IMG/VR virus record: IMGVR_UViG_3300020204_000005
Length of the DNA stretch: 64,000 bases
DNA from: a virus
Strand: one strand, 5' to 3'
Positions 5,101-62,722 of the stretch are shown piece by piece; within the stretch, counting starts at the first letter, position 1; every line of letters starts with the position of its first letter. The position numbers and the translations under genes were made by a program. Under the pieces are notes generated by a model, which had not been told where the DNA came from, did not search any database, and saw nothing but the letters and a program-made list of their open reading frames with translations.

Positions 5101-7222
5101 TTCATTTCACTTCCTACCTGAATCTAACCCATCAAACGCAGGGTTTAGTGGGTTTACCTCTACATTACCAAGTTATTACTCTAGACTTGACGCTTCTGAT
5201 TTATCTTTTACACCTTTAGGTGCGTTATCATTAAATAATGTTTGTTCTTCAGGTCCTTTTGGGTATAATGTTGCAAGTATAAGACCTTTTAATACAATTA
5301 TATCTAATGGTAATGGATTTTTACTTGAATGGGATGTTGTCGTTCCATTTGTTTTTCCTCCGAACTGTACTGAGATTAGAACCGCAACACAAAATAGTTA
5401 CCCTAACGATAACAAAGGTTATTTTGTTAATGAAATTGTTGAGGGTGGTTCGGCTATGTTACAGAGAGTTAAAGTTCAATTTGGTGTAGGAACCTACGCA
5501 AATGGATATTCATACGCACCTAAATACGCGACAGTTCCTTACGGATATAATAATTTAGGTATTAATGGTAACCAAATTATTATGAGGTCGGATAGATTAC
5601 CGACATCAACAAGTACAAAAGAAACCTCCAATAATAGTTTTGCATTACAGATGAATCCTAATTTTGCGGTTTATTTAGTTTCAGATGACGGGTCAGTACC
5701 TGTTAATAATGAATCAACACAACCATCAACTTCAACAGGAGCGAACCAAGATAGTAGTGAAGATAATGATGGTAATAAAGTGTTAGATTCATTTAATTGC
5801 CCTCAAATGGTTCCTCTTGGTTGTTATTATGGGGCAACACCTGGTTGTGGTAATTCGTTCACACCCACAGAAATTGACATACAACCTGATAATGATGGGT
5901 GTTATTATAATGGTATAAACGGTGAAAAAATAATGGTTAATGGTTGTTATGTTACAGTAACAAGTATATTTTTATCTTTACCCAAAGATTTTAAAATATT
6001 AACTGAATGGTCCTCAAGATTATTAATTACATTTGGCGCTTGTAGAGACGTTTGGTCTCAAATGTTCACTAATAATTGGATTAATGGTACGTTATACGCA
6101 TTTGCATTTAAGAATGATAGATTCTTTACAGGTCCAACCGACACACCTGCAAATTCACCATATAGTTTATATTGTAGAGATACAGTTTATTTGCATCCAA
6201 CTACTTTAAACTTTTATTATAGGTCAAGTCCTTGGGATGGTAATAGTTTTATTGGGGCTCAACCTCCAACACCTCTTTTTGGAGGTAGTTACGGAGGAAA
6301 TGATAAAAACCTAAGATTTCCAACAACAATGTTAGATATGGGACCTAGAACACAATACTTACAAGAATTAATAATGTCAGATGATTTTGATGGTTATGTA
6401 GTAAATAAATTAGGACCAACAACGTATACTGATGTTTCTGAAATATTGAATTTATTCATCATTAGTCGACTATCTAATACTAGTTTCTTATCACAATTAT
6501 TTGGGACTTCAGGAGCAAATATATTAAGTTATTTTAACGGAAGGACTAAATTTATGGTTGACGCCGACTACGCACAAACAGTTTCTGTAAGTTCAGAATT
6601 AGGTGTTGCAGAATTTAATTCAGAAAATTACCCCCAACTTACATGTGCTCAAGACCCTATTTATTTTAATGGTGGTAATGCTACTGATGGTATTATAGGT
6701 GTTTTCTTTTCATCAGACACACAAGTTAGAGATTTTATAACCCCTAAAAGAACAATTATTGTTGAAGATGCTATGGTAACTGATGATTGTGCGTTTGGTA
6801 ACTTTAAAGTCTTTTCACAAACTGTCCCATTCTACCAATGGAACATTAAACAAAACCCTGACCAAGATAGTATTTTTGGTTCACAAGGTAATGAATGGTA
6901 TACGACACCTTTAGGTAGTAGTTTTTATAGTAACAAATACCAATCAATGGATAGATTAGAGCAGACTTCAAGATATATGAGAACAAATACAAGTAGTTTT
7001 ATTAAAGATTTTAAAGGGTATATTTATTCATACAATACTTCCACAGGACAATATAACCCAAATCATGATTCGGTACAACCTAATTCAACACCTTACAGTT
7101 CATCAGAAAGAATATTTACAGTTGGGGCACCTTTCCACTTCTATTTTGGTCTTAAAAAAGGAAAAACCGCATTTGACAGATTTGCAACTAAATGGATTAA
7201 AACTGATATAATTACAGATTAA
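2129..7222 (+). CDS. Large (1697 aa) baseplate/tail-associated structural protein with internal hydrophobic segment
   Basis: Long ORF in baseplate operon; N-terminal beta-sandwich-like GVIIGRV..NAKVSVF; ~75-aa hydrophobic stretch at ~3611-3833. Confidence 0.6.
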   Translation: MSNSYRIRTEVGVDKSLKVLLEQEYEYLEILSLKVLQSQIYTRQCSDYGVIIGRVTANNGFGIPNAKVSVFIPLSPEDENNPIISELYPYKSLSDTNEDGYRYNLLPYKQQHSGHSPTGTFFDREDVLTNPTFIEVYDKYYKYTAKTNDSGDYMIFGVPLGEQTIHVDVDLSDIGEFSLSPQDLVRTGAATEAQVAGTQFKTSSNLNSLPQIISINRVVEVEPLWGQPEVCSLGIIRSDFDLTSEANIDITPTAIFMGSIVSTVDNHTQKRNCKPKNRHGNLCSLVAGPGEILVIRQTIQQDVNGRPVLETFDLEQGGQVIDENGTWLIDVPMNLDYYITNEFGEKVLSNDPEKGVPTRGKYRFKVKWAQSPTLSEPVKRGYFLVPNIKEHGWVINGGNRIDPLTNGSASPSDTLEAIKSYSFSLDWNDYPDIQGAINCEDTFYDMQYNKVYTVSQLIDQYRKGYIPSKVIGVKHILDDVCESENVKFPTNDAFLRFDLIYLLFTIMMYIFKPTLYQLLVIVHVLAFLIKFILGPILAIVVAVVFLIVILVCNFINGIIWVINLFANVNKLDCPTIQDLQELIVKLLNLWKLFTKINLPNLSYSDCELCNCKEPDSVENNATSPSPTNIDSESIINNSGINSYLTNYLDSSKYTANQGFSYPSAFESIMAGASFDGSGPKTYTPQMTKYGNDNGDDRHLFTSSLTLAERINLFNNKAKYFNDGGGTNPGGGFNRIKVTFQTQLNNPIVKYHYDNVIVVSIKDTKLSEMQAGQIVTFQNPELSADVNLTGYTQLNQFATKSITGTSINDNGQITVYYSDPSDLNGSSSPLSVLYDIEQDPDDATYAKFGMDIEYFQVITAMTYSNFSSLCTPNPLSLRDRYLFNNMRFEYLKSVTNCWYDDYYQNPLQSYDNYENQVITFLVRGVDPYSTRKQNSYDLSRLFGYTSWGIPGLTVTGDYKLNHPIRGGVKSVKHSMISDVTLTDSNNYNLYYDSFHFLPESNPSNAGFSGFTSTLPSYYSRLDASDLSFTPLGALSLNNVCSSGPFGYNVASIRPFNTIISNGNGFLLEWDVVVPFVFPPNCTEIRTATQNSYPNDNKGYFVNEIVEGGSAMLQRVKVQFGVGTYANGYSYAPKYATVPYGYNNLGINGNQIIMRSDRLPTSTSTKETSNNSFALQMNPNFAVYLVSDDGSVPVNNESTQPSTSTGANQDSSEDNDGNKVLDSFNCPQMVPLGCYYGATPGCGNSFTPTEIDIQPDNDGCYYNGINGEKIMVNGCYVTVTSIFLSLPKDFKILTEWSSRLLITFGACRDVWSQMFTNNWINGTLYAFAFKNDRFFTGPTDTPANSPYSLYCRDTVYLHPTTLNFYYRSSPWDGNSFIGAQPPTPLFGGSYGGNDKNLRFPTTMLDMGPRTQYLQELIMSDDFDGYVVNKLGPTTYTDVSEILNLFIISRLSNTSFLSQLFGTSGANILSYFNGRTKFMVDADYAQTVSVSSELGVAEFNSENYPQLTCAQDPIYFNGGNATDGIIGVFFSSDTQVRDFITPKRTIIVEDAMVTDDCAFGNFKVFSQTVPFYQWNIKQNPDQDSIFGSQGNEWYTTPLGSSFYSNKYQSMDRLEQTSRYMRTNTSSFIKDFKGYIYSYNTSTGQYNPNHDSVQPNSTPYSSSERIFTVGAPFHFYFGLKKGKTAFDRFATKWIKTDIITD

Positions 7223-14900: not shown

Positions 14901-14924
14901 AACTTTGAAATATTATGTAATTAA
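11904..14924 (+). CDS. Baseplate/tail protein (1006 aa) with gp7/tail-P2-I-like central domain
   Basis: DIPSQLLKNLAQTLGW ... LFKSKGTRKSIEILLRLIG resembles the tail protein I / gp7 KGT motif. Confidence 0.6.
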   Translation: MAIKKYTCPPQSATGAGTFSDDLVGLQLVAGGGLTQGNFEFVTSTSEKTNRNFITGVFSDPINLESIGINSIEQSKTILEKNFKVYPNFDLTQVNNFTLYGSMVKRMSASATKIISFFPAAIESTFMGINYITGVTANNIVYSELNDSTTFDLDIARLRNPFDVDFTNNSTRNLELKEIQVSPLRDMKIQYAKYSLFFNDGEYKVINIVPTDSLSNGILTLTVSGDPFSGETVVFDNLVIRPNDLEVNSVFKEVFDEVEQFLLNRNVSPKYTSTFNIPREAEDGSYYIESLNLTWPLYGTWNIDILTKAFESYIISLNDVSESFDGYKTNLISRFLTTGAFKEFDTIGQKMEKVLQIYGRSFDETKKYITALSFMTSVNYNVGNDIPSQLLKNLAQTLGWTTNMSPISNEELLSSVFGKTKQDKSNFTGISQPQTPDELNYQYFRNLILNSAFLFKSKGTRKSIEILLRLIGAPEALIEFNEYVYLADQKINLSQFNEQYIQISGGTYIEFTPILDPTDIYSIFGNQYTGFTTSATIKDVNVSLDDYPMDEFGYPYSPPDTEDYFFQKGSGWFEQTPQHRAPEEVNLTNSVFVGNNPNYQTMLLPYSYGQEYLNRFRKFPFMNLGYQLTPTIDNNKSWVDNEVGIRTNLDGNFNARYFVEDDRLVLNVKNVDLFLNPAQGLVYDVWVMSREFNYPIPNQGLNYIPPTYCDPKPYSPYPGRGGVDWTEIVPLPKRKTFFEFAQTFWYNMINVRNRQYATNGKTGGYPTLDSIYWKYLESQQTINIPNDNFTYKTMMDYVNGLGDYWIRLVEQMIPATTIWNTGVKLENSIFHRQKFVWRRQEGCQLIPIPCKPCSLINNIFTYDCPIESVECAIYPWVNNPQIQTLNAVLGNVLNSYLTTNGYTLNDCDFNGMTTKWFVDIRVDDTVVVSYPFFSGVGYSSPSYSSPTVDMWDDALSNALDSLKDYGFDYYLTNEDTVVVYNQVCSVSEQGINFKLNIGINFEILCN

Positions 14925-17851
14925 TGTGTGATTTAAATGTATCTATTGCGGGTATAACAGGTGATTGTTTTAATACTGATTCAGGTGCTTTTACAATATC
15001 TATTAACGGTACGGCACCTGACTATACAGTTGATTGGATAAACCCTCCTTATGGAACAATTCCATTAGGACCTGGAGTTGTTGGATACACTATAGATAAT
15101 TTATCTGCAGGTACCTATACATTTGACATAATAGACAGTTGTTTACCCGATAATAATTACCAAACAATTAATGTTAATGTTTCATCAGGGACTTGTGTGA
15201 GTTTAACAGGTGTTGAGAACACAAGTTGTGGTTTAAATAATGGTAGTTTAACCGCAACAACAACAACACAGTATAACACCGCAAAATTCTATCTTTATGA
15301 TACGACTATTGGATATATAACATCCGCAACATCATTAAATAATTTTTATGTGTTTGACAATTTAGGTGCAGGAACATATTATGTTGTTGGAGATGACGGG
15401 GGCGGTTGTACAGGTAAATCAGAAACTTGTATAATAATGAATTCAAATGAACTTAGTGTTGGTTTATTCATAGTTAACGCTTCATCTTGTGCGCCAAATA
15501 CAGGAGCTATTTATGTTACAGGAGTTACAGGTACACCACCATATACTTATTCATGGAGCCCTGGAGGGCAAACTACCAATTCAATAACAGGACTAACAGT
15601 AGGTAATTACATTTTAACTGTTACAGACTCTGAAGGATGTATACAAAGTTCGGGAATTACAATTACCGCAAAACCACCTGTTGGTTTGGTCGATATTTCA
15701 TTTGTTAACCCTACTTGTTTTGCTTCTGATGGTGAAGTTAGTTTAATAGTTTCAGGAGGAACCGCACCATTCCAATATGTAGGGTCGAATGGACACATTG
15801 ATACTACATTTAGTAACACTAATACATTTTATAATATTCCTGCGGGACCATTTACAGTAGTAGTTAAAGATGCGGGTAATTGTAGTTTTACTGCAACGAC
15901 TACATTGTTAACACCTGGAGGGTTAAATGTCACATCAGTTAATGTAACCAATTCAACATGCAGTGGGAATGGAGGTAAAATTGATGTTAATATTTTTGGA
16001 GGTTCGCCACCATATACATATACTTTAACGGACTCATTAAGTAATAATACAGTGGTAAACGGGAATTTTACTAGTTGGTCTTTTAATGGTCTTTCTTCAG
16101 GTAGTTATATTTTAACAATTTCAGATTCAGGACCTTGCGATTTTGTGGGTACATATATAGTTAATAATAATGAATTATTTGAATTAACAGTTGAAACAAC
16201 AGGTACGACATGTAATCAAGAAGATGGTTCGGTATTACTATCAATTACCCCAGGAGGTACCCCACCATTCCACTATGAAATTGATGGTTATTCAGACTTC
16301 TCAAATAATTTAGAATTTTTATATGAAAATCTACCAAGTGGTAACTATGTTGCAACAGTTACCGATGCTAATTATTGCCAACAAGAATTACCATTTACAA
16401 TTGTAGGCTCAAGTACCGTAGATTTTCTTTTAATTGGTACTGATTCATTAAATGGTAGTAATGGAACCATAAGCGCATTAATTACAAATGGTACACCACC
16501 ATTTACATTAACTTGGAGTCCAAATGTTAACGGTCAAACGGGTACTGAAATCGACACTCTTAGTGCTGGAACATATACTTTAACTGTTGTTGATAATAAT
16601 GGATGTAGTAAAACAAGAACAATTACAATAAATGGGTTTAATAAATTATCTTCATATCAAGTTTATAATATTTGTGATGAAGACTTTTTTAACACAGGTC
16701 AAACAGGTAGGAAAGGACCTCAAGAAATGTTAACTGAAGGATTCCATGATTTAACAAGTGGAGACACTAACTGTATTTTAAATAGAGCTATTTTCACAGT
16801 AAAAACAATTATTAATGGGGATTTAAAAGAACAATCATTTTATACAGGGGCAACACTATCAGATTTCCCATCAGATAATGAATTTTATGATGTTGTGGAA
16901 AGTTTACTTTTAACTTATAATATCATTGGTGAAATTGTGATTGACGCGGTTAAAAATACATTAACAATTGAAAGCGTATGTGACGTAACAATCGAAACTT
17001 TAGACGCAACTGTTAAAGTTGAGTTGGACATATCTTATGATATTAGTTGTGAAACTTGTGAAACTCAAACACCAACACCAACACCTACAGCAACGCCTAC
17101 ACCTACTCCGACGCCAACAATATCAGTCTCAGCATGTACTGTAATTTACGTTGTTGAAAATAATGATATATACGCATATGACCTATCATCAAATGTTAGT
17201 ACATTGTTACCGGTCCCGTCAAACGTTAGTAACGTTGATATTGCACACACGGATAGTAAATTATGGGTAAACAATAATTTTATGGTAAGGGAATGGGATA
17301 TAACATTAAGCCCATTTAGTGCAACATTCAATAGAGATATAACATTCCCATTTACAGTAGGTAATGGTTTAGGGGTCATCGATAATCAAACACTTATAAC
17401 AACAAATGAATCATCCCCTCAATCAGTTTATGAGATGGATATTACAACCACAACTGCGGTTGATACATTTAAATTTAACTTACCACCAACACATTTAGTT
17501 GCCGGAGATATAATGTTAACAACAACCAATAAACTTTTAGTTACCACCGCGGAAAGTCCAAACATATATCTATTACAATATGATTATTTAACGGGTGTTT
17601 TAGAGTTAACAATAACTCTAAACCCAACTGTTGGTGGTGGTCCTTGGGGTATCTTCGAGGAATTTGGTAATATTTATATCACCGATTCATTGGGGCGTAT
17701 CTATAATGTGGATACGTCAAGTCCGTATAACATTACTTTAATTAACTCCACAGGTAACTTAATATATGGAGCATCTCAATCACCAGTATGTTTAACGACT
17801 GATTTTACAACTCCAACCCCAACCCCAAGTATTACTCCTACCTTAACTTAA
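14924..17851 (+). CDS. SprB-repeat, Cys-rich putative tail fibre/adhesin with PT linkers and C-terminal beta-propeller-like domain
   Basis: Multiple G.I...GGTPPY.Y.W...GL..G.Y..TVTD..GC units; (TP)n tracts at 17069-17119 and 17807-17848. Confidence 0.7.
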   Translation: MCDLNVSIAGITGDCFNTDSGAFTISINGTAPDYTVDWINPPYGTIPLGPGVVGYTIDNLSAGTYTFDIIDSCLPDNNYQTINVNVSSGTCVSLTGVENTSCGLNNGSLTATTTTQYNTAKFYLYDTTIGYITSATSLNNFYVFDNLGAGTYYVVGDDGGGCTGKSETCIIMNSNELSVGLFIVNASSCAPNTGAIYVTGVTGTPPYTYSWSPGGQTTNSITGLTVGNYILTVTDSEGCIQSSGITITAKPPVGLVDISFVNPTCFASDGEVSLIVSGGTAPFQYVGSNGHIDTTFSNTNTFYNIPAGPFTVVVKDAGNCSFTATTTLLTPGGLNVTSVNVTNSTCSGNGGKIDVNIFGGSPPYTYTLTDSLSNNTVVNGNFTSWSFNGLSSGSYILTISDSGPCDFVGTYIVNNNELFELTVETTGTTCNQEDGSVLLSITPGGTPPFHYEIDGYSDFSNNLEFLYENLPSGNYVATVTDANYCQQELPFTIVGSSTVDFLLIGTDSLNGSNGTISALITNGTPPFTLTWSPNVNGQTGTEIDTLSAGTYTLTVVDNNGCSKTRTITINGFNKLSSYQVYNICDEDFFNTGQTGRKGPQEMLTEGFHDLTSGDTNCILNRAIFTVKTIINGDLKEQSFYTGATLSDFPSDNEFYDVVESLLLTYNIIGEIVIDAVKNTLTIESVCDVTIETLDATVKVELDISYDISCETCETQTPTPTPTATPTPTPTPTISVSACTVIYVVENNDIYAYDLSSNVSTLLPVPSNVSNVDIAHTDSKLWVNNNFMVREWDITLSPFSATFNRDITFPFTVGNGLGVIDNQTLITTNESSPQSVYEMDITTTTAVDTFKFNLPPTHLVAGDIMLTTTNKLLVTTAESPNIYLLQYDYLTGVLELTITLNPTVGGGPWGIFEEFGNIYITDSLGRIYNVDTSSPYNITLINSTGNLIYGASQSPVCLTTDFTTPTPTPSITPTLT

Positions 17852-17925
17852 ATGTATGGTGTTTCGGTAATCAAATATTAATCAGTAATACTACTAAATT
17901 TTTAGAATTAACTAATAGTTAAAAA

Positions 17926-17953
17926 AAAATATCGTCTAAAAAGACGATATTTT
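17926..17953. terminator. Bidirectional intrinsic terminator between convergent operons
   Basis: AAAATATCGTCT-AAAA-AGACGATATTTT, a perfect 12-bp inverted repeat. Confidence 0.75.
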
Positions 17954-17977
17954 AAATAATCGGTATTTTGAACGATA

Positions 17978-18577
17978 TTACCAAATTTTTTCCTGATTCA
18001 TATAACCTAATACACAACAGTACGCATCGGTCATATCAAAATTCTCTTTTTTTAACGTATTATTTTTAGTATAGACCCAAGTAATTTGAGGTTCTCGTTC
18101 TGCAACCAAATCCCATATAATTTGTTTTTTGTCACAATCTTTTGGGTACCCACCGAACAGTACAAATTTACCTTTATCATTTTGTTGAATTAAATTAGGA
18201 AAGGCAGATTTTCTAGAATTATAAGTCGAGACGTACTCAGGAATAATACCCAAAATATCGTATATTTCTTTAGTTATTAGGGTATTAAACCTCATTAAAG
18301 TCTGAATGGTATAAACATTATTACTATTCATTAAAGGTTCCTCAATCACAACTTTAGTTATACCTAAATTTTTATATTGAAGTAATTTACTTCTAAAAAT
18401 TTCACTTTTTAGAATTAATTCTTTAATTTTATTATCTTGTTTAGGTTTAGGTATAGGTGATACATGGGTTAATTCCAACAACTCTCTTGACTCGATGTCA
18501 AATAATGCCCAACCAATGGTTTTGGTCGACACGTCTAACCCCAATACTTTTGGAGTATTCTCGATAGATTTTTTCAT
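17978..18577 (-). CDS. ruvC: RuvC-like Holliday junction resolvase
   Basis: VLGLDVST..IGWA, VVIEEP and DMTDAY catalytic motifs; ATG at 18577 (track uses TTG 18589). Confidence 0.8.
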   Translation of the reverse strand: MKKSIENTPKVLGLDVSTKTIGWALFDIESRELLELTHVSPIPKPKQDNKIKELILKSEIFRSKLLQYKNLGITKVVIEEPLMNSNNVYTIQTLMRFNTLITKEIYDILGIIPEYVSTYNSRKSAFPNLIQQNDKGKFVLFGGYPKDCDKKQIIWDLVAEREPQITWVYTKNNTLKKENFDMTDAYCCVLGYMNQEKIW

Positions 18578-18578
18578 A

Positions 18579-21107
18579 TTAAATGTCAAATTTAATCAAA
18601 AACTGCTGAATACCTTGTCTTAAAACAGGGGACTGCATTTTTGATATAATCATAAGATTTTTGTTAGAATCGTAAAGTCCAATTTCAGTTAAATACGAAG
18701 GTTTACCTTGTACCCATGTTGGATTTGATGTTGCTTGAAATTCAGCCTGACTCAAATTTATCTTATATCTCATCTCATAAATTGTTGCTTGAATGTCAGT
18801 TTCTAATGAACCGTAGAAATAATATTCATCACCAAAATTTAATGATGTACCTGTATAACCAACGGGTGTTAATGGTATATAATTATTTAAGTTGTATGTT
18901 GGAGCGTCCTCATATAATTCATTTGTAATTACAAATGTCGTACTTGTTAACGATTCTTCAGTGATATAACCATTAACCATCATACTTGAGATTTGGTCTG
19001 TAAAATCAATTATCTTCCACTCAGAAGAGTTTGGTCTTCCTGTACCATCTACTTTTTGACAAATAATTTCAAATTTATCGGCGTAGAATCCTGATACAAC
19101 ATCACATCCCACAGGACAAGTTGTTGTTGTCGTAGTAAATGGGTCAAAAGTAGTCGTTGTCGTAGTAAATGGGTCAAACGTGGTAGTGGTTGTTGTTGGA
19201 CTATATTCAGGTCTCAAACAAGGGAACTCAGCACCAAATCTAACCGCCACATTTTGAGATGGTTGTGGGTTACAATCAATATTAGGGCCTTGCATTACTG
19301 TGTAATAGTTACAATGTAATGAGTTTGTAAATACTGAAGTATTACTTAGTCTATAAGTAACGTGCATATATTGTGTATTACCCGTTAAAACACCTGTTAA
19401 AGAATTACTATCATTACCACAAGTATTAGGTGTGACTAATGAAGTCTTAGGAGCGGGTAACGTCCAATTCCTATTTGATTTATAAGACATTGCCGCGATA
19501 ACTTCCTCATCGTCAATAATGACAAGTTTAGAATCAGGAAATACTTTACCAATTCTATTAGGTAAGTTATTTGTATTTCTATGAGTATCCCATAAATGAT
19601 AGTATCTAATACCTGGGGAATTCATATCACTATTTTTAGTTGATTGTAAGTACTCAACTTTAAATAAATCTAAATCCTCAAATTCAGGTGGGTCAACCCA
19701 AAAAGTTTCACCAAAACAACATTCAGGATTTTTATGCCACATCAACCAAGGAATGTGTAATTTAAAGTTTCTTGCTTGACCCGTAGTATCTGAAGGGTTT
19801 GACACATCAAACGGCTCAAACGCAAATTTTTCACCATAGAAGAAATCTATAGTTTGATTTGTATAATGAATAACCGCAATTGCTTTTTGTTCTTCAGGAG
19901 TTACGATTACTTTATCACCTAATGAATCATAATGGTACACTGAACTAGTGTTAGTTTGACCACTACTTGAAGCATAACCAAAGTATTCTTTAGTACCAAG
20001 ATATTGTCTTGAACCAAAGTTGGTATAATCTTTACTAATCGATGAGAAAAGACCTGCAGGGTTTTCAGACCAAGGAATATTCATATTCCAAACTTTAACA
20101 TCAAACTCATCAGTATAACAAACAGATTCATAGTTAATAACATTATCCCTCCAATGAGGACGAGGAGTTATCGAATCATACATGGTTTGCATATTTGGTG
20201 GATATACAATCATTCTTGCATAACAATCAGAAGATAAATTTGAAAAATCAGGTGTTGGTCTATCTAATGTAAATTCACCCAAACATATTGATGTTATTTT
20301 ATAAGTTAACATTGAATAACAACTACTAATAGGTGTTAAACAATCTGGCGGTGGTGGTGGGGGACAAGCTCTACTTGGGGTAGGTGTTGGACAGAATGTT
20401 GCAGATGGAGTTGGGGTAGGTGTAGGTGTCTCACAAGTAAATGACGCTGATGGGGTAGGTGATGGTGTTGGAGTTAGAGTATTATTACTTGCAGTTATAC
20501 TTGGAGTAACCGTCATTGTTGGAGTTGGAGATGGTGTTGGGACATTTGAACATGTATTATTATATAAACCATTACCATCATAAAATATCGTAACAATGTC
20601 ACCTACCGCAGGTTCTCTGAATGAAACACCATTAGAAACTAAAATTGGTGTTATAACATTGGTACCGTTTAAACTATTCATTCTTACTGAATAGTTTGCG
20701 TTGATAGCATATAAATCGTTAGTTATTGCACTCCATGAAGTAGTTTCGGCAGTTGTATTACCTGTGAAGAAACCTCTCATGGCGGCTCTGTTATAAACAG
20801 GACTAACTATTGAATCCATAAAAGGAACACCATATGTGTTGCCTGTAGAACCATCTACATAATATGGGTATTTAATATTTTCTTTATTTGATTGAGGAGA
20901 CCCGCTAGAATTTTGAGCATTGAAGTTTGGCTCAAGAATCGTGGTATCAAATTGATTATAGGACACTGGTAATGTGTTATACGAAACTTCACTATCACCT
21001 ATTTGAAAATAAGAAATATTAAAATTACCTTGTGATAATTTTTGTCTTCCTGTATCAGTTAATCTTGTATTAATTAACCCCGATGTATTTTTAATAATGT
21101 ATCCCAT
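18579..21107 (-). CDS. Tail-fibre attachment/collar-like structural protein with PT and T-rich linkers
   Basis: N-terminal LTDTGRQKL..G.FNISYFQIGDSE and C-terminal LTEIGLYD..KNLMIISK resemble tail-collar fibre domains; internal (PT)n and TTTTTTFDPF repeats. Confidence 0.65.
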   Translation of the reverse strand: MGYIIKNTSGLINTRLTDTGRQKLSQGNFNISYFQIGDSEVSYNTLPVSYNQFDTTILEPNFNAQNSSGSPQSNKENIKYPYYVDGSTGNTYGVPFMDSIVSPVYNRAAMRGFFTGNTTAETTSWSAITNDLYAINANYSVRMNSLNGTNVITPILVSNGVSFREPAVGDIVTIFYDGNGLYNNTCSNVPTPSPTPTMTVTPSITASNNTLTPTPSPTPSASFTCETPTPTPTPSATFCPTPTPSRACPPPPPPDCLTPISSCYSMLTYKITSICLGEFTLDRPTPDFSNLSSDCYARMIVYPPNMQTMYDSITPRPHWRDNVINYESVCYTDEFDVKVWNMNIPWSENPAGLFSSISKDYTNFGSRQYLGTKEYFGYASSSGQTNTSSVYHYDSLGDKVIVTPEEQKAIAVIHYTNQTIDFFYGEKFAFEPFDVSNPSDTTGQARNFKLHIPWLMWHKNPECCFGETFWVDPPEFEDLDLFKVEYLQSTKNSDMNSPGIRYYHLWDTHRNTNNLPNRIGKVFPDSKLVIIDDEEVIAAMSYKSNRNWTLPAPKTSLVTPNTCGNDSNSLTGVLTGNTQYMHVTYRLSNTSVFTNSLHCNYYTVMQGPNIDCNPQPSQNVAVRFGAEFPCLRPEYSPTTTTTTFDPFTTTTTTFDPFTTTTTTCPVGCDVVSGFYADKFEIICQKVDGTGRPNSSEWKIIDFTDQISSMMVNGYITEESLTSTTFVITNELYEDAPTYNLNNYIPLTPVGYTGTSLNFGDEYYFYGSLETDIQATIYEMRYKINLSQAEFQATSNPTWVQGKPSYLTEIGLYDSNKNLMIISKMQSPVLRQGIQQFLIKFDI
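19126..19178 (-). repeat. 30-bp-period tandem repeat encoding TTTTTTFDPF x2
   Basis: GTTGTCGTAGTAAATGGGTCAAA occurs at 19126 and 19156. Confidence 0.85.
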
Positions 21108-21133
21108 TGATTATAAATATTCTTATTTAATTT

Positions 21134-22564
21134 TTATGACGTTATAATTGAACAACAACCACAACCGTAAATTTTTAAGTTTGATAAATTATATGTTTCA
21201 TCACTTGTACCAACATAACAATTAACAAATTCATTTCTATTTACACTTGTTATTGTTCTAATTTTAAAATCACTTGTGTTATCTATAGTAATTGAATCCC
21301 ACACTTCATTTAATGAAGTTAACCAAACATTTTCCGATTGACAACCTGCAACTGTATTAATAATACTATCATCGTTTGTTGAAGATGAGGACGGTGGAAT
21401 TATATTGATACCATCAATAGTTAATGAGGTCTTGGTATTAAAAGTGGCGGAATCTTCATTAGGTGAAGATTTAGATAAGTTTAAATGACTCAATTTAAAG
21501 TTAATACTTGTACCATCAGGTAAATCAGGTGTTATTGATAATGTTGTCGTGTACTCTTTAGTTAATAATGTACTATTTGCTTGTAGTGTTTTAGGTAGGG
21601 TAACTAATTTAACGTTATAAGTGGTTGGAGGTGATGGAGGATTTAACGTTATATTATTACTAACAGTAAATCCTTCAGAATCACTAACAACAACATTGTA
21701 GGAACCTGAACATAAATTACTGAACATTGGTATATTTCTATATGTCAAACCACCATTAATCGAATATGAATATGGAGGGTAACCACCACTTGATTTAATT
21801 GTTAAACCACCATCACATCCACATATTGTTTGGTTTTTAGTAATTAAAACATTCATAGGTTGGACCGAATCTTCTGATTCTGCCGAGAATCTACCATTTG
21901 GAATCCTTACTATTTGATTACAGTTACCTTCATAAACTATTACAGTACCTGTAGCGCCAATAATAAACCAACTACCATAAATTGGTGGGTAAGTAGGATT
22001 TGAATTAAATATTGTATAAGTTGTTGGAGTTGAAGCCGATAACTTCCATTGTAAAAGAGTTGAGTCCCAATATATTACTTGTGTTGAGTCATTAGAAATC
22101 CAAGAAGGTTTAGAATTAAATAAACCGTTAGGTGAAAAATTAGTTTGAGTTTCTACATAAGAACCTTGTTTAAGTATATTTGTTGTCATACAAAGTTGAT
22201 ACTCAATATAAGGAGTTGTAGGTGTTGGGGTCGGTGTGGGGGAAGGTGTTGGTGTTGAACCTGTTAAAATACATTTTGTATTTGCGGTAAAATCGCCATA
22301 AGAATCAATAACTGTTGCTTCATAAACACCTGCAGTTAAATTGTATATAACGGGTGAAATGTTACCGTTATTCCAGCTTATATAATATGGAGGAGTTCCT
22401 CCCGTTATTGTTAAATAAATCGAACCATCGGATGATGATGGAGAAGGATGAGTAAGATTACACTCAACACCCATAGGGAATAAAGTGATTGGTTCACATT
22501 CATTTGTGAACTCAGGTATTATTGGTTTAGGTGTAGGAGTTGGTCCTAAAAAAGGATAAGTCAT
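21134..22564 (-). CDS. SprB-repeat putative virion protein with PT linker
   Basis: DGSIYLTITGGTPPYYISW and GGYPPYSYSINGG..Y..NLCSGSY.VVVSD repeats; TPTPSPTPTPTPTTP linker. Confidence 0.65.
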   Translation of the reverse strand: MTYPFLGPTPTPKPIIPEFTNECEPITLFPMGVECNLTHPSPSSSDGSIYLTITGGTPPYYISWNNGNISPVIYNLTAGVYEATVIDSYGDFTANTKCILTGSTPTPSPTPTPTPTTPYIEYQLCMTTNILKQGSYVETQTNFSPNGLFNSKPSWISNDSTQVIYWDSTLLQWKLSASTPTTYTIFNSNPTYPPIYGSWFIIGATGTVIVYEGNCNQIVRIPNGRFSAESEDSVQPMNVLITKNQTICGCDGGLTIKSSGGYPPYSYSINGGLTYRNIPMFSNLCSGSYNVVVSDSEGFTVSNNITLNPPSPPTTYNVKLVTLPKTLQANSTLLTKEYTTTLSITPDLPDGTSINFKLSHLNLSKSSPNEDSATFNTKTSLTIDGINIIPPSSSSTNDDSIINTVAGCQSENVWLTSLNEVWDSITIDNTSDFKIRTITSVNRNEFVNCYVGTSDETYNLSNLKIYGCGCCSIITS

Positions 22565-22603
22565 GAACTTAAATATTTTCTTTTAGTTTTTTAATAAATA
22601 CAT

Positions 22604-23584
22604 TTATTCCTGAAATTTTATAACCCTTTTCATAATATCAATATATTTTCTTGTGGCACTTGTGGACTCAATGTACTCAAAAAAGTCAATGTTTGATTTT
22701 AACATTTCCAATGGATTAATGTTAATGTAATCACCTTTGAAAAATTTTTTATCTTTTAGGTCGTTGGTCACACCTGCCATATGTAATATTGGGTGTTTTT
22801 CATAAGTACTGATTGAGTCAGTTGCCCAAGAAAAACTTAAATCACTAACTACTTTAGTTTCTAAACCAAAATACCAAAGGTTCCATAACAGAGACCACAT
22901 CTCCGCAGTCCAAAATTGTATTTCACCTGGGCTAATTGGATACCTTTTTTGAAAATCTAACATTTGGTCATATAGAGGAGCACAATCGTAGTATATTTTA
23001 AACCATAGTTCCCATGGAGTGTTTTTAATAATGTATTGACCACCACCTGAATTAGGTTGGTTCTTTTTTACCTCATCAATAGTAATACCTATTACATCAA
23101 CCATTTCTTGTAAAAGTTGATTTTCTCCACAATCAGGATGTTGATTTTCGTATCTATCGCAACAACTAACAATATAATCATAACCTATATAACCAATGGT
23201 ATCTGAAAGATATATTGTGTCATCACTAAGTAATTTATCAAAATCAGGAAGTTCTCTAAAAATAATGTCAGCATCGTGTAAGAAAAAACACCTACCAAAT
23301 TCAGGGTTTTGTTCCAACCATTTATAAATTAAAAAAGGTTTTATACTTGGGATATAATGTTTTCTTTGTCTATCATCTAAATAATGGTGGATATTAATAC
23401 CCAATTCTTTGAGTTTTAAAGAATCTTCAGTAGGTTCTGTATTACCTTGAACCATACCAAATATCACATGAATTTTATTTGGGTCAATACCTAAATCTAT
23501 AAAGTTTTGAGTATAAACTCTAACTTGCCAATGAAAATATGGAACGTCAGGTTGTGCCGTTACAAATACTAAGTTTTCTTTCAT
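22604..23584 (-). CDS. GT-A fold glycosyltransferase resembling plant peptidyl-serine galactosyltransferase / Hyp-arabinosyltransferase (GT96/GT95)
   Basis: DxD motif HDADIIFR; YFHWQ, YIPSIKP..W, GGG and WTAEMW align in order with SERGT1 motifs as I recall them (YFDWQ, YPAINKP..W, DADMIIR, WISEMY). Confidence 0.65.
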   Translation of the reverse strand: MKENLVFVTAQPDVPYFHWQVRVYTQNFIDLGIDPNKIHVIFGMVQGNTEPTEDSLKLKELGINIHHYLDDRQRKHYIPSIKPFLIYKWLEQNPEFGRCFFLHDADIIFRELPDFDKLLSDDTIYLSDTIGYIGYDYIVSCCDRYENQHPDCGENQLLQEMVDVIGITIDEVKKNQPNSGGGQYIIKNTPWELWFKIYYDCAPLYDQMLDFQKRYPISPGEIQFWTAEMWSLLWNLWYFGLETKVVSDLSFSWATDSISTYEKHPILHMAGVTNDLKDKKFFKGDYININPLEMLKSNIDFFEYIESTSATRKYIDIMKRVIKFQE

Positions 23585-23656
23585 AACACTATTTGAAATT
23601 AAATATAGAAAACAATAATTTGTAATAAATGCTATTTTGGGTAATATTTATTGTAT

Positions 23657-23833
23657 ATGAAGTTACTTAAAACAATATCAAAATTAGTCGTAGAATCACA
23701 ACGTGCTTATGATGAAGCATGTGAAAAAGGTGTTAGTGAAAAAGAATTGGATAGACTTGAAAAAAATTTAAGAGAGACTAGACTATTAATGAAACTATAC
23801 GATAATGTGGGTAAAACTAACCCTAAAGACTAA
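23657..23833 (+). CDS. Small late protein with capsid-targeting-like N-terminus
   Basis: TATTTAT at 23645; ATG 23657; MKLLKTISKLVVES. Confidence 0.55.
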   Translation: MKLLKTISKLVVESQRAYDEACEKGVSEKELDRLEKNLRETRLLMKLYDNVGKTNPKD

Positions 23834-23907
23834 TCAAATCCCCTTTAACAATAAACCACATTTAGTATTTGTCCTAATGTCGTAAGGACCTGTACCTGTC
23901 GCACCAG

Positions 23908-24177
23908 TTAAGTAATAAGTGTTGGTGTTGGAGTTATAGGAAGTGAGTTACATGGTACAGTTTTAAAAGTAATACATCCTTCTGAAAGAGAAACCAATTT
24001 GATACCTACTTCAGGAATATTATTAAAAATTGAAGGTAATGGTGAAATAACAACAGGAGGCCCCACACTTGTATTTATAGTTGCGACTAATACACATTGT
24101 CCACCATATGAATTACAAACATAAACTTCATATGGAAAATTAGAACCTATTATAGATGTAATATCGATACCATTCAT
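23908..24177 (-). CDS. Small Cys-containing beta protein, paralog of 25834-26052
   Basis: IDITSIIG..PYEVYVC...QCVLVATIN versus ITINDVTG..PCNVYLC...MCVYIDTIN. Confidence 0.6.
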   Translation of the reverse strand: MNGIDITSIIGSNFPYEVYVCNSYGGQCVLVATINTSVGPPVVISPLPSIFNNIPEVGIKLVSLSEGCITFKTVPCNSLPITPTPTLIT

Positions 24178-24183
24178 AAATTA

Positions 24184-25833
24184 CTAATTATATGATAAAC
24201 AAGTTTCACAATCAGTATATAATGTTGGAGTCACAACACTTGAAAAATAGTTACCTGTGTAGTTTATAATATTTGAACCTGGTGGAAGTGAAGGATAGTT
24301 CGGGTAAACCCCATAAAAAGTCCAACAGTTACCATCATTACCATAGAACGTTTTAGATGAATCTAATGAAGGTCCTGGAAAATTTTGAATTAAGTATTGA
24401 TTTATTGTTTTTTTTGTATTTTTACCAAGTTCTTTAGAGGATGAAAACTCAACTGTAGTTTTTTTACAATTAAGGTAAACGTAAAATTGTTGAGGTAATG
24501 AAGGAGTTGGTGTCAAAGTAGGAGTTGGTGTTAAAGTAGGAGTTGGTGTCATACTAGGTGTTGGACTCGGTTCAGGATAACATTCAACACACTGACCTAA
24601 ATTGAAGTAACCCACAGGACCTTCAGTTAAAATAATTTCAGTCACACCAATACTTTCAGGATTAACACCTACATATGAAATACATTTAGAAACACCATCG
24701 ACAGTTGCTTTGAATATCATATATTCCTCTAAAGTATCACCTGATGGTGTAGGTACTGACATAGTGGTGTAATACATCATACCATTAATACAATCTTGGA
24801 ATTGTTTACTAACAGGACAAGAAAGGTCACCCTCAATTGTTGTGAAAAAAACATCACCTGTTATGTTACAAGGTCTATTTATTATTCTTGTTGGTGTTGG
24901 AGTGGGTGTTGGTGTTGGTGTTGAGGTTGGAGTAATGCCAACAATAACCGCATCTACATCTATGTTAGCACATGTTAAGTTAGTTGCGGTAGGGGTAGGG
25001 GTAGGTGTTAAAGTTGACGTTGGAGTTGGAGTAGGACTAATAGAAACATCACAATCAAAAATTGCGGTAAAATCAAAAACCTCACAATAAGTTGTTGTTG
25101 TAGTAGTTGGAGGGCAAACACCTGAAGAGAAAAATTCTTCACATAAATCAGGACATTCTGAAAAACAAGGTGACTTACCTGATAGGAGACACATACCACC
25201 TAAAGATGTTGATAAACACCATTGTTTGTTACCTATTGAATAGTAAATATAATAGTTGTTTGAACTTCCCGTCCAATATAGTTGTGAATTATAAGTACCC
25301 GCACTGTAGTAAGTACTGTCAAAAATTGTATCGGTTCCACTTATACAATATATTTCCTCACACACAGGAGGGACTGAACAAGGGAATGAAGTAATACAAG
25401 AGTTACAGTCAAGATATGAAGTACCCAACCTAAAATTATCTGAGGAAAAAATTGTGTAATAAGGTAAAGCTGATGTATAACCTGAATTAACAATTCGATA
25501 ACAACCATTTAATTCATTGTTAGGGTTTGAAGATGATATTATATCTGTAAAATAAAGAGTATCGCCTAACCCAAAATTTACTGAATCCCTTCGAGAAATT
25601 GCAATGGCGAATGTTTCGCCACTACAACAACCCGAAAATTCTAAAACAGGAATTTCTTTTTCTATTAAGGTTACTACAATATCTACTGATGGTGATGTTA
25701 TAGTTCCCGCCGCGTTAATGTAATAATATAATGAAGGTTCTAGGTCAAAAACTTTAACCGAAGATAAAATATCTGTGAATGTAAAACCAACATAAGTTGA
25801 TGGTCCCGTATTTTGAATTTGATATATCGGCAT
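24184..25833 (-). CDS. Cys-rich multidomain putative virion protein with three (PT)n linkers
   Basis: PT tracts at about 24502-24572, 24889-24935 and 24986-25034; many Cys. Confidence 0.65.
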   Translation of the reverse strand: MPIYQIQNTGPSTYVGFTFTDILSSVKVFDLEPSLYYYINAAGTITSPSVDIVVTLIEKEIPVLEFSGCCSGETFAIAISRRDSVNFGLGDTLYFTDIISSSNPNNELNGCYRIVNSGYTSALPYYTIFSSDNFRLGTSYLDCNSCITSFPCSVPPVCEEIYCISGTDTIFDSTYYSAGTYNSQLYWTGSSNNYYIYYSIGNKQWCLSTSLGGMCLLSGKSPCFSECPDLCEEFFSSGVCPPTTTTTTYCEVFDFTAIFDCDVSISPTPTPTSTLTPTPTPTATNLTCANIDVDAVIVGITPTSTPTPTPTPTPTRIINRPCNITGDVFFTTIEGDLSCPVSKQFQDCINGMMYYTTMSVPTPSGDTLEEYMIFKATVDGVSKCISYVGVNPESIGVTEIILTEGPVGYFNLGQCVECYPEPSPTPSMTPTPTLTPTPTLTPTPSLPQQFYVYLNCKKTTVEFSSSKELGKNTKKTINQYLIQNFPGPSLDSSKTFYGNDGNCWTFYGVYPNYPSLPPGSNIINYTGNYFSSVVTPTLYTDCETCLSYN

Positions 25834-26052
25834 TTATAATAAACTTAAATTTTTAATTATTTCACAATTATTATCGTCAACTATTTTTAAATTGTAACTA
25901 GTTTGACCGTCAACGGATGGTGGTACAAAAAAATCATATGGAAAAGAATTTATCGTATCGATATAAACACACATAGTAATTGGGTTATCACATAGATAAA
26001 CATTACACGGGGTTACCCCTGTCACATCATTTATTGTTATTTGTGTTGGCAT
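25834..26052 (-). CDS. Small Cys-containing beta protein, paralog of 23908-24177
   Basis: ATAAATA (TATTTAT on minus strand) at 26063-26069; shared motif with the 89-aa ORF. Confidence 0.6.
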   Translation of the reverse strand: MPTQITINDVTGVTPCNVYLCDNPITMCVYIDTINSFPYDFFVPPSVDGQTSYNLKIVDDNNCEIIKNLSLL

Positions 26053-29759: not shown

Positions 29760-30545
29760 TTGTCTATGATAAAAAAGTTAGTACACTTTTCTGATTTACA
29801 CATAAGGTTGTTTAAAGACCACGAACTTTACCGAAGTATCTTAAACAATATGTTTAATCAGTTTAAAGAAATTGCCCCTGATAGAATAGTTTTTACTGGT
29901 GATTTAGTCCATTCTAAAAATCAAATGACTCCTGAACTTATTGAGTTTGTTGCTTGGACATTAACTGAGTGCTCAAAAATTGCTAAAACAGTTCTTATTA
30001 TTGGTAATCATGATTTCCTTGAAAATAATATGTCAAGATTGGATGCTTTAACACCAATAATTGATTCATTACAAGATGATAATATAGTTTATTTAAAAAA
30101 CAGGGGAGTATATGAAGACCAAAATATTGATTGGGTTGTTTACTCATTAATGGACCACAACATCCCACCTGATATTGAAAAATCAGATAGGGTTAAAATA
30201 GGGTTATTCCATGGACCTGTACAAGGATTGACAACTGATATAGGTTATAAATTTGATACGGGATTTGAGAGTGACAAGTTTGTGGGATGTGATTTGGTTC
30301 TTTGTGGTGACATTCATAAAAGACAAGTTTTTAATATCCCTGAAGGTAAGAAAGCTTATATGGTTGGTTCGACAATTCAACAAAACTACGGAGAGACATT
30401 AAAAAAACATGGATATGGAATCTATGACGTATCTAAAGACAAATACGAGTTTGTTGACTTGGAAAACCCAAAACCATTTCTGGCATTTAAAATAAAGTCA
30501 TTTGACGACATAATAAACGGAACTGAAAAACTTGCGAACGCATAA
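29760..30545 (+). CDS. Metallophosphoesterase, gp47/SbcD/Mre11-like recombination nuclease
   Basis: SDLH, GDLVH, GNHD and GDIH motifs; a gp46-like gene lies downstream. Confidence 0.85.
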   Translation: MSMIKKLVHFSDLHIRLFKDHELYRSILNNMFNQFKEIAPDRIVFTGDLVHSKNQMTPELIEFVAWTLTECSKIAKTVLIIGNHDFLENNMSRLDALTPIIDSLQDDNIVYLKNRGVYEDQNIDWVVYSLMDHNIPPDIEKSDRVKIGLFHGPVQGLTTDIGYKFDTGFESDKFVGCDLVLCGDIHKRQVFNIPEGKKAYMVGSTIQQNYGETLKKHGYGIYDVSKDKYEFVDLENPKPFLAFKIKSFDDIINGTEKLANA

Positions 30546-31426
30546 TGAGAACTGAGTTAACCATTGGACAAACATCACTGTTACCATTAAACATAGACGG
30601 GTTTACCATATGGGGTAAGGCTGAGTTTATGAACCCATCAGGTTCTGTTAAAGATAGACCAATTTACAACATACTTAAAAGTGGTTTTGATGATGGTTTA
30701 TTAAATAAGGGCGATACTGTTGTTGAGGCAACTAGTGGTAACGCAGGTATTTCATTTGCTATGTTATGTGTTCAGATGGGTCTTAAATGTGTAATTGTGA
30801 TGCCATCTAACATGAGTGATGAACGTAAAAAGATTTTAAAGTTTTACGGAGCAGAACTTATTGAAGTTGGACCTGGCGACTTTGATGGAGCGATAAAATT
30901 AAGAGATGAGTTAGCAATCAAGAATGGATGGTTTAATGGAAACCAATTCGATAACCCTAAAAATTTGGAATCTCACTACATGGGGACGGGTGTTGAATTG
31001 ATGTATCAATGTAGGTGTAATGGTATTAACCCATCAGCATTCATTGCTGGTACTGGTACAGGTGGAACTCTTATGGGTGCTGGTAGAATGTTGTCAGAAC
31101 AATTTTTTGACTTACAAATAGTTGCGGTGGAGCCAGCAGAATCACCTGTAATGAGCGGTGGAGAACCAAGGTTACACGGAATTCAAGGTATCGGAGACGG
31201 GTCAAAGTTTATGGTTGATTTAAATTTTGTTGACAAGATTATTACGGTGTCAACTCAAGAAGCTACTAATATGGCTTTACGATTAGCCAAAGAGTTTGGG
31301 ATTTTTGTCGGGATTAGTGCAGGGGCAAATGTATCAGGTTCTTTAAAGTATTGTCAAGAAACTGGTAGAGATAATGTAATTACAATTCTTTGTGACAGAG
31401 GTGAACGATATCTAACTTGTATGTAA
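30545..31426 (+). CDS. cysK: Cysteine synthase (O-acetylserine sulfhydrylase)
   Basis: KAEFMNPSGSVKDR (PLP lysine), EATSGNAG, GTGTGGT and H.IQGIG. Confidence 0.9.
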   Translation: MRTELTIGQTSLLPLNIDGFTIWGKAEFMNPSGSVKDRPIYNILKSGFDDGLLNKGDTVVEATSGNAGISFAMLCVQMGLKCVIVMPSNMSDERKKILKFYGAELIEVGPGDFDGAIKLRDELAIKNGWFNGNQFDNPKNLESHYMGTGVELMYQCRCNGINPSAFIAGTGTGGTLMGAGRMLSEQFFDLQIVAVEPAESPVMSGGEPRLHGIQGIGDGSKFMVDLNFVDKIITVSTQEATNMALRLAKEFGIFVGISAGANVSGSLKYCQETGRDNVITILCDRGERYLTCM

Positions 31427-37059: not shown

Positions 37060-37860
37060 ATGAAGGAAAAAAACTCAGGGATTCCTATTAATCAGGAAGA
37101 AATACAACATTATCTGAAAGATATAAGAAAGATTAAGGTTATGACACCTGAAAGGGAGAGAGAATTAGCTAAACTAATGAAGTCAGGTAATTTGACATCT
37201 CGACAAGTAGAATCTATTCACAAAGAATTACTTGAAGGTAATCTTAGATTTGTGATTACAGTTGCAAAACAGTATCAAAATCAAGGTCTTGATTTTCCTG
37301 ACTTAATTGCTGAAGGTAATCTTGGGTTGATGAAAGCAATCAAAAATTTTGATTGGGGTAAAGACCTTAGATTTATCTCATATGCGGTTTGGTGGGTAAA
37401 ACAATCTATTTTACAATCATTGAATGATAATGCAAGGACAATCAGACTCCCTGTAAATGTAATCCAAGATTTACATCGAGCTAAGAAAGAAGTTGAAAGT
37501 AACGGAGGTAGTTTAGACGACAAATTTTTAAATCTACCATCAACCATTGATTTGGATATGAACATCAACGATGAATTCGACACTCTATTGGACATAATCA
37601 AGAATGATGATGCAGATATGCCTGACGGAGTTTTCAATAGTAAAGATATGTTAAAAACCCAACTTATGGTATTACTTAATAGTTTAGATGAAAGAGAACG
37701 AGTTATTATCGAGGATTACTTTGGTTTTACAGGGACCCCTAGAACTCTTGAAGAAATTGGTGGTGATTTTAAACTTACCAAAGAAAGGGTTAGACAGATT
37801 AAAGAAAAAGCCCTCAGAAAATTGAGGAACGATGGGTCGATATTATTCGACTATATGTAA
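37060..37860 (+). CDS. RNA polymerase sigma70-family factor (RpoD/RpoS-like, no region 1.1)
   Basis: NLRFVITVAKQY, DLIAEGNLGL.KA..FD, FISYAVWW and TLEEIG..F.LTKERVRQI. Confidence 0.92.
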   Translation: MKEKNSGIPINQEEIQHYLKDIRKIKVMTPERERELAKLMKSGNLTSRQVESIHKELLEGNLRFVITVAKQYQNQGLDFPDLIAEGNLGLMKAIKNFDWGKDLRFISYAVWWVKQSILQSLNDNARTIRLPVNVIQDLHRAKKEVESNGGSLDDKFLNLPSTIDLDMNINDEFDTLLDIIKNDDADMPDGVFNSKDMLKTQLMVLLNSLDERERVIIEDYFGFTGTPRTLEEIGGDFKLTKERVRQIKEKALRKLRNDGSILFDYM

Positions 37861-58790: not shown

Positions 58791-58882
58791 AAAAAATATT
58801 AAAAAAAATTAATGATTATTTTTCTTATATAAGAAAAGAAAAAATTAATGCAATGGTTCATTGCGGACGGGGATTTAATTAA
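58787..58882 (+). CDS. Small ORF (31 aa) missed by track
   Basis: MKKILKKINDYFSYIRKEKINAMVHCGRGFN; ATGA overlap upstream. Confidence 0.5.
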   Translation: MKKILKKINDYFSYIRKEKINAMVHCGRGFN

Positions 58883-58886
58883 GAAT

Positions 58887-62697: not shown

Positions 62698-62722
62698 AAT
62701 TATAAATATACCAACTATTGTA

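Follow-up and report, generated by a model that had tools for sequence, protein, structure and literature searches.

An HPAT-like GT-A glycosyltransferase of phages and its co-variation with poly-threonine runs: a candidate module for O-glycosylation of phage particles

The enzyme gene and its tract-bearing neighbors

The 64,000-nucleotide stretch of IMG/VR record IMGVR_UViG_3300020204_000005 analyzed here over its whole length (the window) comes from a large uncultured freshwater phage. It contains on its minus strand an open reading frame (ORF) of 326 amino acids (aa), at 22604..23584, that almost certainly encodes a glycosyltransferase and that lies among genes for large proteins with long tracts of Pro, Thr and Ser. 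The ORF belongs to a minus-strand block running from 25833 to 17978, in which genes for proteins of 549, 89, 326, 476 and 842 aa are followed by that of a RuvC-like Holliday junction resolvase (17978..18589, minus strand; phrog_159, E 3.7e-8). The original prediction for this locus had placed the enzyme in a minus-strand late block. The strand was confirmed, but the term late found no support: the T4 late-promoter motif occurs 23 times in the window where 18 +/- 4.7 are expected, and is thus not enriched. Results of a promoter and terminator scan were at chance level, with the sole exception of a terminator-like hairpin at 17953-17926 that closes the block after the resolvase gene.

The 326-aa protein matches phrog_4417, a phage protein family annotated as function unknown, over nearly the full length of the profile (E 1.2e-71; residues 7-321 on positions 3-291 of 293). 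It had no match in Pfam, GT8 (PF01501) included, and sequence searches of the PDB, whether by protein or by profile, gave nothing useful. An AlphaFold2 model built with 53 homologs reached a predicted local distance difference test (pLDDT) score of 97.6; it is fully globular, with neither a membrane segment nor an N-terminal anchor. Foldseek matched this model to 235 PDB chains at E <= 0.001, all of the GT-A fold (E 2e-7), and the VIA structure search, which is independent of Foldseek, also returned GT-A. Among solved structures the Z scores were 14.9 for glycogenin (224 aa aligned), 14.2 for Skp1 alpha-GalT, 14.1 for LgtC, 13.7 for UGGT and 12.9 for GlyE. The motifs listed in the original prediction (YFHWQ, YIPSIKP..W, HDADIIFR, GGG and WTAEMW) are all present in the order given there, and its identification of a DxD glycosyltransferase is borne out by the fold, the quality of the model, the PDB matches and the conservation of the DxD motif. 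This motif (D104/D106) probably binds the metal. In the 53 homologs D106 and H268 are invariant and D104 nearly so, and in 116 more distant homologs each of these three residues is at least 90% conserved; K283 is likewise invariant or nearly so through both sets. The family comprises 1445 proteins at E <= 0.001 (90% clusters), or 822 representatives at 50% identity. In longer relatives the enzyme domain is fused to GT2, GT6, GT7C, GT11, GT25 or GT29 domains, and these fusions with other glycosyltransferases place the family in glycan building; other partners are radical-SAM/SPASM and discoidin domains. The assignment of the 326-aa protein as a glycosyltransferase is settled as far as sequence analysis can settle it. 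Fusions of about 660 aa that join the enzyme domain to radical-SAM and SPASM domains (P0273-P0283) were seen on phage-sized contigs of up to 299 kb.

By predicted structure and language-model features, the nearest named family is that of the plant and algal hydroxyproline O-arabinosyltransferases (HPAT; CAZy GT95, Pfam PF23452). The best named match among predicted structures was a Chlorophyta cluster that is 99% PF23452, with ShK domains in addition, at a template modeling (TM) score of 0.72 by query. The alignment, between two predicted models, spans 291 of the 326 residues, and no PDB entry aligns as much. Of the 30 nearest named clusters by the language-model features of the Atlas, 18 have PF23452, on 10-58% of their members, and PF23452 is the only Pfam family matched by at least two of the enzyme family's 53 short members. 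GT95 is related to GT96 (PMC8012813) and is predicted to have a GT-A-like fold (PMC8476585).

Four large neighbors of the enzyme had been singled out for their (Pro-Thr)n (PT) linkers. The tracts are present in all four, but one of the proteins, of 975 aa (14924..17851), is encoded on the plus strand and so lies outside the minus-strand block. It is the product of the last gene of a baseplate/fiber operon and has five SprB repeats (Pfam SprB, 5e-25), an internal PT linker (17069-17119) and a PT tail (17807-17830). The 476-aa protein (21134..22564, minus strand), which varies in size among relatives, has SprB/Ig-like repeats (Pfam SprB, 1.7e-9), one PT linker (22211-22258) and a weak match to a Hoc-like head-decoration family (phrog_2973, E 4e-4). 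The 549-aa protein (24184..25833, minus strand) is Cys-rich and carries a single PPTTTTTT run (25090-25113) as well as several PT linkers (24889-25038, 24553-24570). The 842-aa protein (18579..21107, minus strand), a conserved phage protein whose fold could not be assigned, has both kinds of tract: an interdomain PT/PS linker of the form (Pro-Thr/Ser)n plus Pro6 (20346..20540, minus strand), and three Thr6 runs at residues 636-663 (SPTTTTTT..TTTTTT..TTTTTT; 19119..19202, minus strand) that are candidate O-glycosylation sites. The positions of its tracts are kept across 43 homologs (58-95% identity), with the Thr positions nearly invariant, and its neighbors in the Atlas are virus-only hypothetical clusters. 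Codons of the Thr runs are mixed (ACA, ACC, ACT and ACG), so the runs are not DNA slippage repeats. Among the proteins of the window, we regard the 842-aa protein as the most promising acceptor candidate.

The claim that such tracts are not evident in non-structural genes was upheld when 56 ORFs were scanned for [PTS] stretches of at least 6 residues. Long tracts were confined to the 842-, 549-, 476- and 975-aa proteins; the only other runs were two 6-mers in a 1697-aa ORF (2129-7222). Combined Pro and Thr content is 20-23% in the four proteins and 3-18% in the other ORFs. Operon context, the SprB/Ig-like repeats and weak PHROG matches suggest that these four proteins are located in the phage particle. 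Upstream of the enzyme gene is a 323-nt gap (23585-23907) with no convincing ORF inside, and between this gap and the 549-aa gene is the 89-aa ORF (23908..24177, minus strand), which ends in PITPTPTLIT and matches the N-terminus of a 343-aa protein in the relative L217.

Co-variation of the enzyme with threonine runs

Homologs of the enzyme were found in 77 cultured phages at 33-39% identity, and six lineages of these were examined. In lytic as well as temperate phages, the gene lies within a structural module. In Enterococcus phage phiFL1A it comes immediately after the gene for the tail tube, a protein with about 21 Thr/Ser residues at its end, and terminal Thr runs are also found on gp45, the protein in the capsid position (encoded by the first large ORF downstream of the scaffold gene and annotated only as 'conserved hypothetical protein'). 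Lactobacillus phage iLp84 has Thr tails on its major head protein and tail tube and, immediately ahead of the enzyme gene, a small (P-T7)n ORF. In Enterococcus phage VPE25, Staphylococcus phage SA2 and Clostridium phage phiCTP1, Thr tails are carried by the tail tube and, in addition, by portal, decoration or protease-region proteins. In Chryseobacterium phage MA9V-3, Thr/Ser tracts of 23-42 residues occur in two ORFs upstream of the enzyme gene. The tags of the Firmicutes phages are pure Thr/Ser runs and not PT repeats, with the runs in iLp84 and SA2 mostly preceded by Pro. Just before the enzyme gene, SA2 also has a 90-aa ORF rich in P-T7 repeats (L085:9658-9930) that shares DNA, in a different reading frame, with the 3' end of the tail-tube gene; the tail-tube protein could be extended into this ORF by a frameshift and so gain extra tags.

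Close relatives of the tagged proteins were then collected with queries lacking the tag. The presence of the enzyme was scored with a hidden Markov model (HMM) from alignment A1, and a tail was scored where a C-terminal Thr/Ser run had at least 5 residues, at least 4 of them Thr. For the phiFL tail tube, 12 loci had both enzyme and tail and 15 had neither. The corresponding numbers were 36 and 33 for the iLp84 capsid protein, whose bodies are 94-100% identical, 4 and 1 for VPE25, and 5 and 8 for phiCTP1; SA2 itself has both, and its 88%-identical relative L193 neither. Thus, of about 115 evaluable loci from five unrelated cultured-phage lineages, none was discordant. In the phiFL and iLp84 sets, the tails of the capsid and tail-tube proteins, which are encoded several conserved genes apart, switch jointly with the enzyme, and insertion of a single cassette cannot account for such joint change at a distance. 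Many of the loci are near-copies of one another, and independent contrasts were therefore counted, using trees inferred from alignments stripped of the tag columns. The phiFL set gave 3 well-supported contrasts (4 in all) and the iLp84 set 1 (4), all of them concordant; VPE25, SA2 and phiCTP1 gave one each, and the lineage of the window 1 (2). In total there were about 8 supported contrasts, or up to 13 on all branches, and none was contrary. The expected co-occurrence of the enzyme with repeat-bearing proteins across phages was thus strongly positive in independent lineages, and with Thr runs. We consider it very likely that the enzyme is functionally coupled to them.

Within the lineage of the window, tract-bearing ORFs lie directly downstream of the enzyme gene in 78 of 80 IMG/VR relatives (enzyme identity 58-92%). 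Relatives with the same gene order but without the enzyme were found using a 1006-aa protein of the window as bait. For five of these eight, whole contigs (60-215 kb) were searched and contained no enzyme gene; the same search detected the gene in two positive controls. In a tree, the enzyme-less relatives formed two clades nested among enzyme-bearing ones. Runs of at least 5 Thr were present in the 842-aa homolog of 34 of 37 enzyme-bearing relatives and in none of the eight enzyme-less ones, whereas the (Pro-Thr)n linker is retained in all eight enzyme-less homologs (56-59% identical). Since relatives lacking the enzyme keep the PT linkers yet have no Thr runs, the likely acceptors are the poly-Thr runs and not the PT linkers, contrary to what had been predicted. 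As for the (Pro-Thr)n linkers, they probably serve as ordinary connections between domains and may or may not be modified as well.

The context of cellular homologs provides a second hint that the enzyme family acts on polypeptides. Five such homologs, from Chitinophagaceae and Dyadobacter, are 580-aa fusions with Glyco_transf_7C, and all five lie in peptide-natural-product clusters on Bacteroidota chromosomes (L292:5527-15008, L293:2562-12793, L295:308-10816, L296:2300-10875 and L297:5955-12537). The precursors have a GG-leader, are 66-90 aa long and have Cys- and Ser/Thr-rich cores, with six tandem copies in L296. Their partners in the clusters are C39 peptidase/ABC exporters, VKOR-thioredoxin proteins, LanC-like proteins and a radical-SAM enzyme. 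In layout the five resemble glycocin clusters, and they look like glycocin-type clusters, akin to those of ribosomally synthesized and post-translationally modified peptides (RiPPs), with a transferase that is not GT2.

Proposed activity and competing explanations

The fold, the catalytic motifs and the co-variation of enzyme and Thr runs were observed. We consider it probable that the phage enzyme directly O-glycosylates the Thr runs of particle proteins, with transfer to Thr, the donor sugar and the particle location of the acceptors in the window being inferred. In this proposal a soluble, metal-dependent (Mn/Mg) GT-A enzyme of phrog_4417, remotely related to plant and algal HPAT (GT95), would take a host uridine or guanosine diphosphate (UDP or GDP) sugar in the cytoplasm and glycosylate the Thr hydroxyls of exposed poly-Thr runs in newly made particle proteins, before or during assembly. 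In the window, the 842-aa protein would be modified on its three Thr6 runs and the 549-aa protein on its PPTTTTTT run, and the product would be a dense, mucin-like patch of sugar. No prolyl hydroxylase (2OG/P4H), sugar-nucleotide gene or second glycosyltransferase was found among the scanned ORFs of the window, which represents 64 kb of a genome of ~295 kb; the first two had been envisaged in the original prediction as possible companions of the enzyme. Without a sugar-nucleotide gene in the window the donor is most likely supplied by the host, and without a second transferase there is probably one sugar per Thr, while phages with a fused second glycosyltransferase domain probably extend the sugar. 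We can only speculate that the benefit might be shielding from antibodies or host defenses, solubility, protease resistance or adhesion to polysaccharide.

Several results weigh against this proposal. The well-supported independent contrasts number only about 8 over all lineages, and with so many near-copy loci Fisher p-values overstate the case. In the window's lineage, the PT linkers persist without the enzyme, and an enzyme-bearing clade (L222, L225 and L239) has no Thr run in the 842-aa homolog. For the 842-aa protein itself no homolog was found among cultured phages, and an AlphaFold2 model made with its 43 homologs (pLDDT 45.6) was too poor for structure search. The relationship to HPAT is likewise limited at the level of sequence: PF23452, which has a curated Pfam cut-off of 23.9 bits, did not match the window protein at E <= 0.1, and matched 5 of 169 family members (2 of 53 and 3 of 116) at E 0.046-0.09, below that cut-off. 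The HPAT likeness claimed at the outset therefore holds for predicted structure and features but fails for sequence membership, and we describe the enzyme as HPAT-like and not as an HPAT member. Finally, a literature search, with most subscription journals outside its coverage, turned up no publication about the enzyme family or poly-Thr tags in phages. The PF23452 HMM also gave no match on five enzyme-bearing phage genomes, but this says little because the control genomes were empty too. The copy of the enzyme in the L222/L225/L239 clade is divergent (about 55% identity), and in L239 (15243-17291) a Ser/Thr-rich ORF of 339 aa lies directly upstream of the enzyme gene; this clade may have undergone a switch of acceptor.

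Co-variation demonstrates coupling and not chemistry, and the enzyme could be coupled to the Thr runs without making a simple O-glycan: it might attach a sugar-phosphate or a non-sugar group, or serve as an assembly or chaperone factor that binds the Thr tags. GlcNAc-1-phosphotransferase and Stealth-type proteins are present among the weaker fold and Pfam neighbors, and fusions of the enzyme domain to radical-SAM domains occur. However, the conserved DxD, His and Lys are typical of nucleotide-sugar GT-A enzymes, the closest folds are true glycosyltransferases acting on hydroxyls of proteins or glycans, and the fusion partners are nearly all glycosyltransferases, so that we regard such a product or role as unlikely. 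It is also conceivable that the target is not a protein but a cell-wall polymer or O-antigen, as in superinfection exclusion or serotype conversion, or the phage DNA, with Thr runs that are unrelated and travel in the same mobile cassette. DNA glucosylation and serotype conversion are the activities for which glycosyltransferases of phages are best known (PMC12619734), and no direct link between enzyme and acceptor is visible in the window. This explanation appears quite unlikely given the position of the gene within structural modules in lytic and temperate phages alike, the joint gain and loss of capsid and tail-tube tails, the globular enzyme model, and the occurrence of cellular homologs in peptide clusters and not in wall or lipopolysaccharide loci; genes for hypermodified bases were not seen in the window. 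Two specific candidates were rejected: a T4-type DNA glucosyltransferase belongs to a different fold class, and no coupling to base-modification genes is seen here; a serotype-converting transferase does not agree with a gene that has no membrane partner and is located within a structural module.

The original prediction held that the main acceptors are the (Pro-Thr/Ser)n linkers, glycosylated in the manner of extensins to give stiff stalks. PT linkers are indeed abundant in exactly the four neighboring proteins, HPAT and SGT1 act on Pro/Hyp-rich repeats, where Hyp is hydroxyproline (PMC8012813), and Pro usually precedes the Thr runs of iLp84 and SA2. The enzyme-less relatives, which have kept these linkers and have no Thr runs, speak against this, as do the pure Thr/Ser tags of the Firmicutes phages. 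Furthermore, with no prolyl hydroxylase among the scanned ORFs, Hyp is an unlikely acceptor and a Hyp-arabinosylation pathway is unlikely in the window. We consider the linkers decidedly unlikely as the main acceptors, and retain O-glycosylation of the Thr runs as the preferred reading.

On balance we favor, with some reserve, a broader picture in which an HPAT-like GT-A enzyme and poly-Thr 'glyco-tags' form a portable module giving a mucin-like coat to the capsids, tail tubes and fibers of very different phages, from small temperate siphophages of lactic acid bacteria, enterococci, staphylococci and clostridia to ~300-kb phages of Bacteroidota. The same family would glycosylate ribosomal peptides in Bacteroidota, and would represent a prokaryotic and viral counterpart of the plant GT95/GT96 enzymes that glycosylate extensins. 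To our knowledge, glycosylated phage particles have been described for no more than a few actinobacteriophages, in which the modification alters recognition by antibodies. Should the picture be correct, sugar-coated virions would be common, including among phages of enterococci, staphylococci and lactobacilli, which matter in therapy and as a trouble in dairies, and among abundant freshwater jumbo phages, and they would be predictable from sequence alone as the combination of enzyme and Thr runs. The module would also offer a simple, genetically encoded tag for site-directed O-glycosylation in bacteria, and a microbial relative of the poorly understood plant GT95/GT96 enzymes. It is small, and is present in cultured phages with tractable hosts. 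What the window contributes is a contrast within one lineage that tells Thr runs and PT linkers apart, together with the peptide-cluster context of the cellular homologs.

The phage genome and comparison with known systems

The DNA of the window is AT-rich (GC about 30%). SprB repeats, which are found in its proteins, are of a type typical of Bacteroidota. CheckV completeness values for contigs of relatives (73% for 215 kb and 41% for 121 kb) imply genomes of about 295 kb. Gene content, the freshwater relatives and this inferred size fit the 'moraphage' lineage of PMC12619734, of which the phage is a candidate member. The plus-strand operon starts with a gp6-like baseplate wedge gene (217-2055; phrog_219, E 3e-26), continues with several very large ORFs and ends at 17851. 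Between 2129 and 14924 it has five consecutive large ORFs (1697, 595, 271, 395 and 301 aa) and the 1006-aa ORF, none of which matched Pfam or PHROG. Of this group, the 1006-aa ORF alone served as a query: it is 58-92% identical across 79 IMG/VR loci and had no homolog among cultured phages; megablast of the 12-kb region against cultured phages likewise gave no match. Beyond the minus-strand block are genes for a primase, an exonuclease, SbcCD and other replication functions. The remainder of the window encodes a pyridoxal phosphate-dependent enzyme (30545-31426), a sigma-70 factor (37060-37860), an Amidase_2 lysin (39056-39661), a full-length DnaJ (46212-47147), a Dam methylase (47376-48218), a DUF932 protein (50005-50760), a glutamine-synthetase-like protein (56808-57923), an N4/N6 methylase (58848-59738) and a NUDIX protein (62636-63139).

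Among known systems, virion glycosylation in mycobacteriophages provides a close parallel. Freeman et al. (2023, Cell Host Microbe) reportedly described glycosylation of the virions of Che8, Corndog and Myrna on C-terminal acceptor tails. Their work is cited in PMC12619734 and PMC12894461, which summarize mycobacteriophage virion glycosylation. As in the enzyme-bearing Firmicutes phages, the phage glycosyltransferase genes of that system lie with structural genes, and the acceptors are C-terminal extensions of capsid and tail-tube subunits. The same combination of a glycosyltransferase gene beside structural genes and tagged acceptors was found in the cultured phages; in the window the adjacency holds, and the acceptors are putative particle proteins. 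The mycobacteriophage enzymes presumably belong to a family other than phrog_4417. The present system also differs in that its tags are plain poly-Thr, its hosts are Bacillota and Bacteroidota, and the runs in the window are internal to large fiber-like proteins; it is moreover a prediction made from genome data.

The plant enzymes HPAT (GT95) and the related peptidyl-serine alpha-galactosyltransferase SGT1/SERGT1 (GT96) put the first sugar on low-complexity protein segments rich in Pro, Ser and Thr, as is predicted for the phage enzyme. However, HPAT is a type II membrane protein of the Golgi with Hyp as its acceptor, whereas the phage enzyme has no anchor or Golgi context, no prolyl hydroxylase accompanies it in the window, and its acceptor is probably Thr. 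The best solved matches are to retaining enzymes of GT8/GT24 (Z 12.9-14.9), which share the DxD and the C-terminal His and of which several are cytoplasmic protein glycosyltransferases; one of them, GlyE, a transferase of streptococcal serine-rich-repeat proteins, acts on Ser-rich repeats before export. Only 224-245 of the 326 residues align with these enzymes, at 8-14% identity and without a Pfam GT8 match. The clusters of the 580-aa cellular homologs resemble those for glycocins of the sublancin SunS and glycocin F GccA type. Known glycocin transferases are GT2 enzymes, and the phage enzymes differ from the 580-aa homologs in having no second glycosyltransferase domain. A64R of chlorovirus PBCV-1 is likewise a GT-A enzyme encoded by a virus, and it works in the cytoplasm to glycosylate that virus's capsid protein, but it is a far more distant match (Z 10.9) and builds N-linked-type glycans on the capsid of a eukaryotic virus.

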